Below are positions 21,001 through 28,536 of a DNA stretch of 28,536 nucleotides, one piece after another. This stretch comes from an uncultured Fibrobacterales bacterium (lineage in GTDB: Bacteria; Fibrobacterota; Fibrobacteria; Fibrobacterales; CAWVXU01), in contig CAWVXU010000030.1 of NCBI GenBank assembly GCA_963934255.1, positions 1-28,536 on the forward strand, written 5' to 3'. Position 1 is the stretch's first letter; each line of letters starts with the position of its first letter. The position numbers are program-made.

Positions 21001-24000
21001 CAGTATAAATCTAAGCTTTTTCCTAGTATAAATCTAAGCTAACTCAGCTTTACCCCATGTTAAATAGCGTTTGTTTCTCAAATCCACAAATTATCTGGAA
21101 TTTTTATAAAATAGAATTTTGACTAAATCTGCTAAATTAATTGAAGTTATAAACTGCTAGTATGATGATAACCAGGCTGAGAAGAAATGAAATTTTGCCA
21201 AGTTTCTGTAATTTATTCAAAGCTTCAATATTCTGAGTTCTAACAACTTTTTTACCTAAGCGAGTCAAATAAATGACCAAAGCAAAGAGAATCACCACTA
21301 AAGTCAGCTTGGCGTGAAGCAATGGCATCTTAGCCATCGCAGCAAAATAACGATGAAGCATTCCAAGTCCTGTTATAATCAACAGACCAAACCCGATATG
21401 GCTCATTTTGCCTAGAGCGGGAATAATTTTTGAATGAACTTTTAATCTATCTTCGTCGCTGTCTTTTCTAGTGGCTAGTCCGATGAATAAATAAGCAAAA
21501 CTGACGCCTACGGCCATAGCTATCCCAATAAAGTGCAGGCTTAAAAATATCTCTCTCATAATTGCTCCATTTCGATGAATTCTTGATGGTTTGAATATAA
21601 TTTCTAAGCAAATAATAAGTGGGGTAAAGACAAGTTTAAAGGGTAAAAATCTTAATTTGGTATGTCATATGGACAAATCGTTGTTTATTTTGAGTAAATG
21701 ATGAAAAAAAGGTGAACAAATGGCAAAAAAAGACCGATTTCCTTTGATATTTTGAGTGTTTTCTCCTAAATTTCAAGGGGAATGGGAGACTTTAAGTCGC
21801 AATTCCATCAATGATTGGAGAATGTCCGTGAATTTTATGCCCGAAAATATTAGTACTTTCGGCCAGCAAATCGATGATTTGACTGTGTTGATCACCATAT
21901 TTGGTGTGATATGCTTGACCCTGGCTGAAGGCACATTGTTCATTTTTGCAATAATATACCGCAAGAAAGAAGGTGGAAAGGCTGCCTATATCCCTGGTAA
22001 AGCTTTTGCTCAGCTTAAATGGGTTCTTATGCCATTATTTCTGATTATCATATTGGACGAATGGGTCTCTATTGAAAATGCAGACCCTTGGCAAGAGATC
22101 AAAGTTGACCGACCTACTGAAGGTATTCAGATTGGGATTACAGCTCAACAATTTAATTGGGTTTTCCATTACCCAGGCAAAGATCAAATTTTGTGGAATG
22201 AGAATGACACTAAGAACCCAGATGTGCTTGTTATTCCTATCAACACAAACATACTATTTGACTTACAAGCAAGAGACGTGCTGCACTCTTTTTGGGTTCC
22301 TTCACTTCGCTTGAAACAAGACGCAATTCCAGGCCGAATTATCAAGGGATGGTTCAATGCAACCAAAGTAGGCGAGTATGATATTGCCTGTGCTGAGATT
22401 TGCGGAACAGGACATAGTCAAATGTCTGCAACTCTTAAGGTTGTTTCAAAAGCTGATTACGCAATTTTCCTAGAAGAGTCTTCTAAGAAAAAAGTAACTG
22501 GTGAAGACATTGTGAAGATGAAAGGCTGTACTGGCTGTCACAATGCAGTTGGACCCGCAAAAGTCGGACCGACTTGGGCTGGTATTAATGGCGCTAAAAA
22601 AATAATTATTCGCGATGGTAATGAAGTGGAAATCATATCTGATGAAAACTACATTCGCGAATCAATTCTAAAACCTAATGCCGCAAAGTCTGTTGGATAT
22701 GAAAATGCTGTAATGCCTGCTCAAAATCTAACTGACAAAGAACTTGATTTAATCGTCGATTACTTAAAATCGCTGAAATAAGGGGAAATTGAAATGTCAC
22801 ACAATCAAAGCTTTGTGAGCAAGTACTTATTCTCGATGGATCACAAGACTATTGGGGTTCAGTACCTACTTGTTGGTTTGTTCATGTCTCTTATAGGAGG
22901 CGGACTGGCGTTTGCATTCCGGATGCAACTCGCGTTTCCAGGTGTCGATTTGCCACTTCTTGGTGAAGTAACGGCAGATAAGTACAATATTTATATCACT
23001 ATGCATGGCACGATTATGATTTTCTTCGTAGCTATGCCGATACTGTTAGCTGCTTTCGGTAACTTATTGATTCCACTGATGGTCGGCGCTGATGATATGG
23101 CTTTCCCAGTTCTTAACATGCTGTCTATTTGGACATTTGTTGCTTCTAGTATCATTCTTATTGTTTCTTTCTTTGTGCCTGGTGGTGCTTTTGCTGGAGG
23201 GTGGACAGCTTATCCACCACTCTCTGCTAATGCCTATCCTGAACAAATTGACTTCTTTGGAACGATGGGTGGCCACTTATGGCTCATTGCCATTGCAGTT
23301 GAATTTGTTGCATTCTTAATGGGTGGTATTAACTTTATCGTCACCACTTATAACATGCGTGTTAAAGGTCTTGATTGGTATAGACTTCCTGTGACAGTTT
23401 GGATGCTTTTAATTGCCTCACTTGTCTTTATGTTCTCTGTAGGACCGCTTATTGCAGGAGCATTTATGCTTTTATTTGATCGTACTATCGGGACTGGATT
23501 CTTTAACCCAGCTGCTGGTGGTGACCCGATCTTATTCCAACATTTGTTTTGGTTTTTCGGTCATCCAGAGGTTTATGTTGTGTTACTTCCTTCACTAGGG
23601 TTTATCGCTGAGGCTCTGACTACATTCTCCCGTAAGCCGCTATTTGCTTATAAAGCGATTGTGAAGTTCACCATATTTGCTGGTCTTCTTTCCTTTGTTG
23701 TTTGGGCTCATCACCAGTTCATCGCAGGGATTGATCCTCGCATGGCAAAATTCTTCTCCTTTACGACCATTGTTATTTCGATACCATTTGCATTTATCAT
23801 TTTTTCAATGATCGCTACCCTCTTTAAAGGTCAGATAAGTTTCAAGACACCTATGCTTTTTGCACTTGGTTTCTTAACAACTTTCCTTATCGGTGGTGTC
23901 ACGGGTATTTATCTAGGTGCTTCAACATTTGATATATATGCTCATGACACTTACTTTGTGATTGCTCACTTTCATTACGCTATGTTCCCACCGGTTATTT

Positions 24001-27000: not shown

Positions 27001-28536
27001 TAGCTCCGATTGTAGCCGCTACGAGTGCTGTTCTTAGCCGTATCGGATATAAAATACTGCTTCGTAAATATTTCAATCAAGTGCATAAAAAGACAATACC
27101 TCCATCTAGCTTTAAGTCCAAATTTGAGAAGTTATATATCGCTCGTTTGGTCTTGCTTGAAGTTGCCACAATCTTCAGTCTAGTCTTGTGCCTATTGAGT
27201 GGTGACCAAAACCTACTAGCTATTTCATGCTTTTCATTTTCTGTATTTATTTTGACAAAACCAACTTTGGTGAGGCTAAATCAAGAGCTTCAATCTAACG
27301 CCTAAATTGTTGAATTAAATTTACGGAACACAACAGAAGTACACAGCCCCAAACTTGATGGGCCAGCGCTGTATGCATTTGAGTATGAGTTAATACGGTC
27401 AAAATCCCTAAAATAAATTGTCCAGAGACGGCTATCGCAAGATAATTGAGAGCTGTTTGGTGATGACGGTAATGATTCAGGTCCCCCGCACTAGCTATGT
27501 GAAGTGCGTTTAAAGCTTTTTTACCAAAATACCATAATCCAAGAATACCGAAAAACAGCACCCATGCAAACGTTCGATGGATAAAGTGGACGGTAGTAAT
27601 ATCAAAGACTAGACTTCTTAGGAACGTAGGCGTCCCAAACATGTGAGGTGGAATCAAATAACCGAACATTTTCGGGAAATCAGTAAATACATAGCCTGCT
27701 TTAAGTCCCGCATTGAGGCCCCCATAAGCAATTTGAAAAAGAAGAAGTGCGGGTAAAATGACGCTTGAATTTACAAGCCAAGTAGGAATTGATTTATTAA
27801 ACCCTTTTTGTTTGGCTGGCCAAAGTTCAGTCATTGCAATCCAAACTAGGTAGGATACTAAAATAAAAGCAGTACATAAATGCGTAGTGAGTCTAAGGTG
27901 AGAAACATGGGGAATTTTAACCAATCCACTTTTTACCATATACCAACCGATAAACCCTTGAGTTGCTCCTAAGGCAAAGGCAAGAAGAAGTTTTAAGTTA
28001 AGTTTACTTTTGAATTTGATAGTCTTTCTGATCATAAAATAAAACCAAGGCAATGCAAAACACATACCAATAAGCCGACCAAGCATTCGGTGTAAGTATT
28101 CCCACCAAAAGATTTCTTTAAATTGTTCAACGGTCATGTCATAATTGATCAGCTGATACTCTGGAAATTTCTTATATGCCTCAAAAACTTCAAGCCAAGC
28201 GGATTGACTCAGAGGGGGTAGATTCCCAATCAAACTCCAGTCAACCATTGAAAGTCCGGCACCCGAAAGCCTAGTAGCCCCACCCAAGACAACCATAATC
28301 ATTATTAAGAAGGAAACTGCTCCAAGCCAAATGACCACGGGCGTGTTTGGTTTTTTTGTAACATTCTCCATAATGACCACCCTTTAATGATTAAAGTGAA
28401 TCTCGTTTACGTCATAAATTTACAAAATAAAAGGGCTAAGCTTGAAAATTATGAATGATAAGTTAGATAATAATTAACCACTAAAAAAGCCAAGGATGAA
28501 CAATCCTTATCTATAAGACTAGCCTTTTCAAATCAC

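Follow-up and report, generated by a model that had tools for sequence, protein, structure and literature searches.

The genome GCA_963934255.1 (G000) most plausibly represents an uncultured marine bacterium from a small family of the Fibrobacterales, with aerobic respiration on chitin as its main way of life, an explanation to which, taken as a whole, we assign a probability of roughly 0.7. The terminal oxidase locus is located towards the 3′ end of the window (the whole stretch of DNA analyzed, 28,536 nucleotides of contig CAWVXU010000030.1). The genome-wide survey's note had described an oxygen-respiring, motile, sunlit-water chitin degrader that had switched its lifestyle within an order of strict anaerobes. 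At the level of gene content, an oxygen-respiring, chitin-specialized and flagellated organism was borne out, and seawater sequencing runs supplied the marine habitat; the proposed switch was not (see below).

The window contains, intact, what the note had called a caa3 operon with haem A synthesis, that is, coxB, coxA, coxC, the genes for subunit IV, a second coxC and the DUF420 protein, and ctaA (Table 1). The enzyme has the hallmarks of a caa3 oxidase: the CuA-containing subunit II is fused to a cytochrome c (CxxCH at the C-terminus of CoxB), and both haem O synthase (ctaB, on contig C25 outside the window) and haem A synthase are encoded. The real start of coxB is probably the ATG at 21822 or 21837, and the CopD-like protein is a candidate copper-delivery factor. 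A promoter scan (28 sites versus 21.4 ± 3.8 expected) was uninformative.

Table 1. Features at the oxidase locus of the window.
Feature	Position	Strand	Evidence or remark
tRNA-Met	20876..20949	+	flanks oxidase locus
Terminator-like hairpin	20953-20985		3′ of tRNA-Met gene
CopD-like membrane protein	21137..21559	-	PF05425 E 2e-8; divergent from coxB
coxB, subunit II, CuA ligands and C-terminal cytochrome c	21756..22781	+	TIGR02866 over cut-off; motifs; alignment
coxA, subunit I, A1 motif	22794..24482	+	
coxC, short subunit III, first of COX3 doublet	24482..25063	+	PF00510 E 8e-20
caa3-type subunit IV	25075..25491	+	TIGR02229 over cut-off
Second COX3 homologue	25640..26212	+	PF00510 E 3e-9
Small membrane ORF	26149..26442	+	position kept in Oligoflexia operon and G258; 37% and 34% identity
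DUF420 membrane protein, oxidase-associated	26435..26833	+	PF04238 E 2e-26; synteny
156-aa membrane ORF	26835..27305	+	single match DUF6095, below cut-off
ctaA, haem A synthase	27295..28380	-	PF02628 E 1e-81; convergent with operon

Held against the A family (A1), the oxidase has the metal ligands and the D-channel but lacks the K-channel threonine and lysine and the corresponding glutamate of subunit II. All six histidine ligands of CoxA (His71, 257, 306, 307, 392 and 394), the cross-linked Tyr261, and the D-channel residues Asp101, Asn108 and Glu259 are kept, whereas a gapless alignment to solved enzymes places Phe332 and Ile335 at the K-channel threonine and lysine. Both residues are missing in 20 of 20 rows of the clade to which this CoxA belongs, whereas the lysine is kept in 19 of 19 A2 CoxA rows; in the alignment of subunit II, the glutamate at the K-channel entry is replaced by glutamine in all five CoxB proteins of the clade and present in all three of the A2 type. 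O2 reduction with proton pumping is the predicted function, but as the only oxidase assembled has no K-channel, turnover with O2 is not guaranteed. Variants of COX1 lacking the K-channel are known, among others from Gemmatimonadetes, and those encoded with a COX3 doublet (bioRxiv 10.1101/2020.03.01.968255; subtype a-III, PMC6431628, PMC4986455) resemble the window enzyme in the exchange of the lysine for a hydrophobic residue, the loss of the subunit II glutamate, the retained D-channel and the duplicated COX3; doublet and K-channel loss occur together here, as in the COX operons of Degli Esposti. The published enzymes, however, stem from acidophilic iron oxidizers and soil bacteria and were typed A2, whereas the CoxA of G000 carries the A1 motif and is the sole assembled oxidase of a marine heterotroph. 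In the COX1 tree, it belongs to a patchy clade with Oligoflexia, Myxococcota, Gemmatimonadota and Verrucomicrobiota, and grouping it with G003 was rejected by the AU test (p 1e-6; the tree left out G003:C22 and G156:C67, weaker COX1-family rows without a BLAST match to the window CoxA). Among the matches listed from JGI metagenomes, none was a close relative of this CoxA (best 63%). A single-sequence fold of CoxA (pLDDT 44) was discarded.

The remainder of the respiratory chain is encoded elsewhere in the genome, as the survey had stated. Contig C69 carries alternative complex III (ACIII) as one operon for pentahaem ActA, ActB, NrfD-type ActC, ActD/E and ActF, and stops within the last act gene; the six subunits of Na+-NQR (NqrA–F) are encoded on C54, 2-oxoglutarate dehydrogenase (OGDH) on C22, the bacillithiol synthesis genes bshCBA on C27, and azurin, recognized by its motif, on C44. 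That complex I is absent was confirmed, as 13 of 13 Escherichia coli Nuo subunits remained without a match in the genome. The TCA cycle is complete (SucCD, OGDH, monomeric isocitrate dehydrogenase, SDH and Mdh, all over cut-off), in contrast to that of Fibrobacter-type fermenters, which is incomplete and lacks succinyl-CoA synthetase; the supposed icd on C4 turned out to be leuB. SDH could work as a fumarate reductase. Pyruvate dehydrogenase (PDH) and an H+-type ATP synthase are also present. Electrons from PDH and the TCA cycle would pass via Na+-NQR and SDH to quinone, on to ACIII and, through cytochrome c or azurin, to the caa3 oxidase, with ATP being made by the H+-type synthase.

The many chitin enzymes that had been claimed amount to 10 GH18 proteins over cut-off (DxDxE motif kept in 10/10), five GH19 proteins ([HQ]ET motif in 5/5) and three GH20 genes, with chitin loci on C12, C57, C59 and C64. 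Some of the GH18/GH19 hydrolases bear T9SS-like tails; an AA10 lytic polysaccharide monooxygenase (LPMO) was found in none of five genomes. Secreted GH18 and GH19 enzymes would cut chitin without an LPMO, uptake of the oligomers would probably involve outer-membrane proteins of the Fibrobacterota type and an ABC transporter of the Opp family, and GH20, GH3 and a GH94 phosphorylase with mutase and ROK kinase would convert them to GlcNAc-6-P. The GH94 enzyme, a putative chitin-oligomer phosphorylase, constitutes with mutase, kinase, GH18, GH19 and GH20 a set of the Chitinivibrionia type. NagA was not found in the genome. Its candidate substitute, encoded on C64, is a fusion of a PIG-L deacetylase with a dead NagB domain, which probably stands in for it, and a stand-alone SIS protein encoded on C14 is probably the deaminase. 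A PF01182 match on C19, considered as NagB, was read as 6-phosphogluconolactonase because it is flanked on either side by a gene of the oxidative pentose-phosphate pathway and E. coli NagB does not match it. The best matches of the chitinases (27–48%) are split among families f2 and f7 and the other class. Two lineage-specific pairs are seen in the GH19 tree; common ancestry and separate expansion are equally compatible with these results.

With respect to the hallmark cellulases and xylanases of the order, said to be gone, the absence of GH5, GH8 and GH10 held (0, 0 and 0 in G000). The cellulase families are not wholly lost, however, because an endoglucanase-type GH9 and a GH44 remain, both with T9SS-like tails, and as two GH16 and one CE2 are likewise retained, the diet may exceed chitin. 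The sister genus encodes eight GH5 and no GH18 enzymes; the change setting G000 apart from it is that of substrate, from cellulose to chitin, which has a parallel in a second family of the order, f2.

The “full flagellum” was largely recovered (matches to 21 of the 25 structural proteins queried from E. coli), but without its sensory counterpart: MCP, CheW, CheR and CheB were not found in G000 (in a search with a control), nor was MCP in 12 regions of relatives' genomes, the only ones searched. All four photolyase-family genes were located again, three on C23 and the fourth on the 1.7-kb contig C138; they are the sole basis for calling the organism light-exposed, and class genomes outside the order match the family as well (see below). 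Four loose matches to a rhodopsin motif, none accompanied by a second motif, were not accepted as rhodopsins in this pattern-only search. Near-identical DNA was present in 11 sequencing runs, each with a share of 0.2 or more of the sampled words and each carrying a marine or seawater label (of 19 in total, the eight with a share below 0.2 were not used, and uncovered bins were not read as absence). Three DNA runs covered 30, 28 and 23 of the 30 bins of the window; no contig from the runs compared spans it. Contigs from an RNA library matched too, which is no proof of transcription.

The lifestyle switch presupposed a strictly anaerobic ancestor of the order and a recent gain of aerobic respiration, by transfer, in the lineage of G000, a history that we consider quite improbable. 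The survey's counts among 156 relatives were reproduced for ActD (1), Na+-NQR (NqrF, 6) and photolyase (PF00875, 0), and shifted slightly for COX1 (5 instead of 4) and GH19 (3 instead of 2). Yet 151 of these relatives represent one of the four families of the order, so the apparent rarity of the oxidase (“4/156”) is a sampling effect. Both genomes of the own family (f1) and both f4 genomes contain a haem-copper oxidase, and these families are sisters in the species tree (SH-aLRT 95; RpoB alone, 27 rows, with no RpoB match in four of the 30 genomes queried). Among the 51 class genomes outside the order, 44 have the COX1 family (PF00115 tallies take in cbb3- and NOR-like matches), 40 ActD and 28 PF00875. 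A transfer would account for the confinement of photolyases to G000 within the order and for its oxidase, which is of patchy distribution and not orthologous to that of the sister genus. ACIII, in contrast, is orthologous between the two (ActC 83%, same fused ActD/E), and the A2 oxidases of f1 and f4 form a common clade (SH-aLRT 97) with the gene order sco-coxA-C-D-B, which in the sister genus directly precedes the act operon. The A2 tree, which held no A2 enzymes from other phyla, is only partly congruent with RpoB, f1 and f4 grouping with the other class. In f4, ActD had no match; f2 is chitinase-rich and had no oxidase match. The trees suggest that respiration was present in the ancestor and that the gut branch lost it. 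The ACIII/A2-oxidase chain would have disappeared in the line leading to f2 and f3, while the lineage of G000 would have kept ACIII, lost chemotaxis and most plant-glycan enzymes, expanded its chitinases and replaced the A2 oxidase by the K-channel-less A1-like enzyme. It is doubtful that ancestral ACIII/A2 respiration, obligately aerobic chitin specialization, a sole K-channel-less oxidase, swimming without chemotaxis and GlcNAc-6-P deacetylation by PIG-L all apply jointly; with such an ancestry, the anaerobes of rumen and termite would be the derived forms. That flagella are ancestral in the phylum and that microaerobic respiration occurs in it has already been published (PMC4704652).

Since completeness is 92% and C69 breaks off within act, an A2 oxidase could be unassembled among the ∼8% missing; it might then be the main oxidase of an aerobe, and the window operon accessory, as in other Fibrobacteria with both. 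G244 and G258 indeed carry, in addition to an A2 enzyme, a second oxidase that belongs to the window clade, and the A2 genes of f5 and f7 lie downstream of act. However, the place of the A2 genes in the sister genus, upstream of actA, is assembled in G000 and occupied by a divergent GH18 gene, the assembly contains one COX1-family match, and ctaA sits at the window operon; we thus regard an unassembled A2 enzyme as possible rather than probable. It is unlikely that G000 is a microaerobe or facultative fermenter, living in particles or on animal surfaces, whose oxidase mainly scavenges O2 or uses another substrate. The missing K-channel, the lack of a detectable catalase gene, a two-subunit 2-oxoacid:ferredoxin oxidoreductase and the suspicion, held without hard evidence, that COX3-doublet oxidases function at low O2 (PMC8879329) would agree with this, but neither PFL, AckA, Pta nor cytochrome bd was found in the genome, a pattern search gave no hydrogenase or nitrogenase motif, and the genome encodes PDH, OGDH, succinyl-CoA synthetase, superoxide dismutase, two AhpC, a protein resembling glutathione peroxidase, and bacillithiol synthesis. 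That respiratory or chitin contigs were binned from another organism is very improbable, despite an assembly of 138 contigs with no 16S, one clear misassembly (on C77) and one photolyase gene on a very short contig: contamination is 0.28%, the tetranucleotide composition of 12 key regions is within the genome's own range (four foreign controls were outside), C69 holds both a GH18 gene and ACIII, the latter having Fibrobacterota relatives, as do the C64 locus and the SIS protein, and most bins across the window showed similar low depth in independent DNA runs.

Aerobic growth on chitin, the reading preferred here, would extend what is known of the phylum. Growth of Fibrobacterales bins on particles of chitin in seawater has been described (Szabo et al, 2022, PMC9335236), and chitin-degrading marine members of the order are already in its supplementary table: Dataset S1 assigns the coastal seawater bins to Fibrobacterales without a family, all 11 (four clusters) as degraders with 13–23 chitinases, 1–4 hexosaminidases and no GlcNAc PTS. 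As far as that account of the bins goes, on whose description the comparison with G000 is based, it does not deal with respiration, cellulase loss or motility. Chitinivibrio and Chitinispirillum alkaliphilum (PMC4814513, PMC4704652), chitin specialists of the Fibrobacterota, share with G000 GH18, GH19, GH20 and Por-tailed enzymes as well as chitobiose phosphorylase (in G000 a putative one), mutase and kinase. They belong, however, to another class and are obligate fermenters of soda lakes with NagA and deaminase, whereas in G000 the respiratory chain is full and the TCA cycle complete, chitinases are more numerous and NagA is missing. The soil MAG mCT95 (family UBA11236; PMC9700909), with nine GH18, two GH19 and a proposed chitinolytic role, was linked to soil and fungal chitin and kept plant-glycan enzymes, respiration not being treated in the description of that MAG; G249, G251 and G252 combine a similar profile with oxidases, and G251 shares a C64-type locus. 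The Ca. Fibromonas termitidis group (PMC4704652) are, like G000, flagellated Fibrobacteria with an O2-reducing chain, but are cellulolytic and chemotactic and have complex I, cytochrome bd and an incomplete TCA cycle, whereas G000 has Na+-NQR, ACIII and caa3 oxidase, and neither bd nor chemoreceptors.

The usual picture of the order is thereby reversed: the cellulose-fermenting anaerobes seem to form a single derived branch that has been sampled heavily, and genomes rich in chitinases but poor in cellulases recur in several separate branches of the phylum. The order can dominate single chitin particles, and whereas the papers considered here describe it by chitinase counts alone, G000 adds the metabolic outline of a marine chitin degrader and hints at cultivation in oxic seawater with chitin. 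The candidate NagA substitute is directly assayable. If the K-channel-less oxidase is the sole one, it bears on a long-standing question of bioenergetics and would serve as a natural experiment on whether full oxidase turnover is possible with the D-channel alone.

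The genome-wide survey's note had credited the uncultured Fibrobacterales genome (G000; 2.67 Mb in 138 contigs, 92.06% complete, 0.28% contaminated) with a caa3 oxidase operon and haem A synthesis, and the window, contig C30 of that genome, indeed encodes coxB, coxA, two copies of coxC, subunit IV, and ctaA. CoxB carries CuA and a C-terminal haem c; ctaB lies elsewhere, on contig C25. The further genes listed by the note were also located: alternative complex III (ACIII, act genes) on C69, NqrA-F (Na+-NQR) on C54, 2-oxoglutarate dehydrogenase on C22, bshCBA (bacillithiol synthesis) on C27, four photolyase/cryptochrome-family genes (three on C23, one on C138), and an azurin-like lipoprotein, recognized by motif. 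The reported lack of complex I was borne out, as 13 of 13 Nuo subunits were not found with E. coli queries, nor NuoL by profile. E. coli queries also failed to find CydA, PFL, AckA, Pta, KatG, KatE, and Ndh (bd also by profile), and a scan by sequence patterns turned up neither nitrogenase nor hydrogenase motifs.

A complete TCA cycle is encoded: tblastn matched citrate synthase, AcnB, and FumA, and monomeric IDH, SucCD, SdhCAB, Mdh, and PDH E1 scored over NCBIfam cut-offs; the remaining pdh operon stands at the end of C40. According to PMC4704652, succinyl-CoA synthetase is missing from all ten Fibrobacteres genomes treated there. The genome also has SOD, two AhpC, Bcp, and a glutathione peroxidase-like gene. 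The c subunit of the ATP synthase, encoded on C28, is without the Na+-binding motif, so that Na+-NQR goes together with an H+-type synthase.

Coordinates of the loci discussed (contigs of G000)
Feature	Contig	Position	Remarks
Ferredoxin and geranylgeranyl reductase-family pair; weak PorV-like gene	window	6609-8025 and 9920-10954	
HDOD domain divided between two neighbouring ORFs	window	16458-17153	minus strand; either a disrupted gene or a misassembly
CopD-like gene and tRNA-Met	window		upstream of coxB
coxB, coxA, coxC, caa3 subunit IV, second coxC, small ORF, DUF420, 156-aa ORF	window	21756-27305	in this order
ctaA	window	27295-28380	convergent with the oxidase genes
GH44	C8	23631-25559	T9SS-like tail
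cheB stretch	C13	3897-4223	interrupted by stop codons
ATP synthase c subunit	C28	7993-8199	
GH9, endoglucanase type	C34	16139-17845	T9SS-like tail
498-aa protein with five CxxCH motifs	C55	14992-16488	adjoins feoB
PIG-L/NagB fusion, then GH20, CBM30-like protein, three large proteins	C64 (L350, L396)	1615-13218	
Perfect palindrome, 2451-bp arms reaching the contig end	C77	7582-12483	gives a second copy of lpd and of the PDH E2 gene's end; probably arose in assembly

The oxidase itself appears to have been exchanged. The window CoxA shares 40% identity with its counterpart in the sister-genus genome (G003, family f1), and a grouping of the two was rejected (AU p 1e-6). It falls into a 20-row clade (99) with enzymes from Oligoflexia, Myxococcota, Gemmatimonadota, and Verrucomicrobiota and three from f5/f7, families of the same class outside the order; the Oligoflexia enzyme shares the gene order of the window operon. 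The ACIII of G000, on the other hand, is the orthologue of that of G003 (ActC 83%, same ActD/E fusion), and upstream of actA stand cox genes in G003 and a divergent GH18 gene in G000. Since C69 breaks off within the last act gene, an A2-type oxidase (A-family haem-copper enzyme, as in G003) may have been left unassembled. The enzyme apparently swapped in keeps the D-channel, the Tyr, and all six His, but at the K-channel Thr and Lys positions, aligned without gaps to solved enzymes, it has Phe and Ile. Both residues are missing in 20/20 clade rows, whereas the Lys is kept in 19/19 A2 rows; in the window CoxB, the subunit II entry Glu is replaced by Gln. In model oxidases, most O2 turnover is lost when this Lys is mutated; the Acidithiobacillus enzyme functions as an oxidase. 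K-channel-less COX1 proteins, and COX3 doublets in Gemmatimonadetes, are reported in bioRxiv 10.1101/2020.03.01.968255 and may overlap with the clade of the window CoxA.

The note had called these genes rare in the order and read them as a switch out of anaerobiosis. By genome, rarity holds: among the other 156 genomes of the order (f1, 1; f2, 2; f3, which we infer to be Fibrobacteraceae, 151; f4, 2), the COX1 family, a tally that also takes in cbb3 and NOR, was matched in 5/156 (f1 1/1, f2 0/2, f3 2/151, f4 2/2) and ActD in 1/156 (f1 1/1, f2 0/2, f3 0/151, f4 0/2). By lineage it does not, as the class outside the order has 44/51 (f5 5/6, f6 1/1, f7 32/32, f8 6/12) and 40/51, respectively. NqrF was matched in f1 1/1, f2 2/2, f3 1/151, f4 2/2, and f5 6/6, PF00875 in 0/156 genomes of the order and 28/51 class genomes outside it, and NuoL, searched in 60 chosen genomes, in none of the four of f1 and f4. 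Without the unpublished genome G253, on which no conclusion depends, the f7 tallies are 31/31, 29/31, and 17/31. In an RpoB tree of 27 rows, f1 groups with f4 (SH-aLRT 95) and f2 with f3 (90), both pairs unite at 98, and (f5,f7) is their sister; the A2-type CoxA of G003 and of the two f4 genomes, G155 and G156, group at 97 (SH-aLRT), as do those of f5 and f7 (97), and the gene order sco-coxA-C-D-B is common to f1 and f4. On the simplest reading, respiration would be ancestral and have been lost on the f2+f3 branch, so that the proposed switch probably runs backwards. This history is built on one marker gene, quick trees, and A2 rows without outgroups from other phyla, and the deeper A2 CoxA branching differs from the RpoB tree. 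Two closely related subunit I proteins with A1 motifs and long reading frames, from one f3 and one f8 genome (G006:C131 and G286:C217), stand apart from both other clades and are possibly quinol oxidases. Oxidase classes are treated in PMC6431628, PMC4986455, PMC8879329, and PMC11214002.

The many chitin enzymes claimed for G000 are there: 11 GH18 matches, 10 of them over the cut-off, 5 GH19, and 3 GH20 genes, with DxDxE kept in 10/10 GH18, the [HQ]ET motif in 5/5 GH19, and a T9SS-like tail on 5/15 GH18 and GH19 proteins. The claimed loss of cellulase and xylanase families stood only in part. GH5, GH8, GH10, and LPMO genes were not found in G000, and as G003 has 8 GH5 and 4 GH8, it is improbable, by a rough figure, that assembly gaps hide all such copies; an endoglucanase-type GH9 and a GH44 are nevertheless retained, beside two GH16 and one CE2. 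That GH9 is closest (44%), among the loci compared, to the sole GH9 of the f2 genome G001. The only other GH9 closely matches PDB 3h7l, 5dgq, and 6gdt (E as low as 5e-164), Vibrio/Photobacterium exo-glucosaminidases with "endoglucanase" in their PDB titles. A C12 operon holds a mutase, CBM9, GH3, and GH94, and a ROK kinase gene adjoins a GH20 gene. The subunits of an Opp-family ABC transporter are 42-60% identical to those of one in the chitinase cluster of genome G251; as its closest solved relatives bind peptides, context alone suggests sugar transport. NagA was not found in G000. A candidate substitute is the 665-aa C64 fusion, which stands ahead of a GH20 and joins a NagB domain, its catalytic positions replaced here and in three relatives (65-68%), to a PIG-L domain with intact HHDD motif; a stand-alone SIS protein that adjoins a PFK and has Fibrobacterales relatives is a candidate deaminase. 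All six proteins of the C64 locus have homologues (32-50%) in the G251 cluster, and two of its three large ones resemble Fibrobacterota-specific clusters.

Across 60 of 296 genomes, picked to span families, GH18/GH5 counts (E 1e-8) were 10/0 in G000, 0/8 in G003, 0/29 in G155, 17/1 in G001, 8/0 in G002 (f2), 0-4/3-14 in 18 f3 genomes, and 15-18/2-3 in three f7 genomes; GH19 was matched in 21/296 genomes, including f2 2/2 and f14 8/8. Several branches thus have chitinase-rich profiles, and the chitinase comparison fits either shared ancestry or separate expansion. With GH8, GH10, COX1, and ActD unmatched in both its genomes, and with NagA present and flagellin absent in G001, f2 is a second chitinase-rich family that looks like an anaerobic chitin specialist. 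G155 and G156, which combine 27-29 GH5 with an A2 oxidase and NQR and gave no match for ActD or NuoL, are possible aerobic cellulose specialists within the order.

Of the full flagellum of the note, 21/25 structural queries were found, along with 7 Flagellin_N matches, but MCP, CheW, and CheR were not found in G000 even with tblastn relaxed to E 1; the same Tar query matches 3950 plasmid records. The interrupted cheB stretch on C13 points to a loss of chemotaxis, and two HAMP kinases with CheA-like ATPase domains persist.

Parts of the window occur in 19 sequencing runs from 12 studies; in 11 runs, labelled marine or seawater, the share is at least 0.2, and the runs with the largest shares may be the source. 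Among four runs from four other studies, the three from DNA reach 30, 28, and 23 of 30 bins, with depth mostly low, and the one from an RNA library yielded a 1093-base contig over coxB without difference and pieces of coxA and coxC, contigs that are no proof of transcription; none of the four gave a contig spanning the window. For 12 key regions, tetranucleotide distances (0.87-1.69) stay within the range of the genome, whose maximum is 1.88; those of four controls exceed it (1.96-10.19).

In the literature, flagella are considered ancestral, and termite Fibromonadaceae respire with complex I and bd (PMC4704652); cellulolytic Fibrobacterales occur in sediment and termites (PMC10116835, PMC11481507), an anaerobic chitin pathway is known (PMC4814513), and a soil UBA11236 MAG has 9 GH18 and 2 GH19 (PMC9700909). 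PMC9335236 counts Fibrobacterales among the "jackpot" taxa of chitin particles in coastal seawater; its 11 bins, which form 4 clusters, are all degraders with 13-23 chitinases and no family assignment, and in one sample among the columns listed a single cluster reached a relative abundance of 0.83. A supplementary table of that study partly anticipates a marine chitin lifestyle. Literature searches, largely outside subscription journals, turned up no account of haem-copper respiration, of ACIII, or of a complete TCA cycle in Fibrobacterales.

Gene content thus supports well an aerobic, marine, flagellated chitin lifestyle of G000 (probability roughly 0.8). What is new, all of it drawn from genomes, is that aerobiosis is likely ancestral to the order, and that this lineage would have switched from cellulose to chitin relative to its sister genus, apparently swapped its oxidase for a K-channel-less one, lost its chemoreceptors, and may have substituted NagA.
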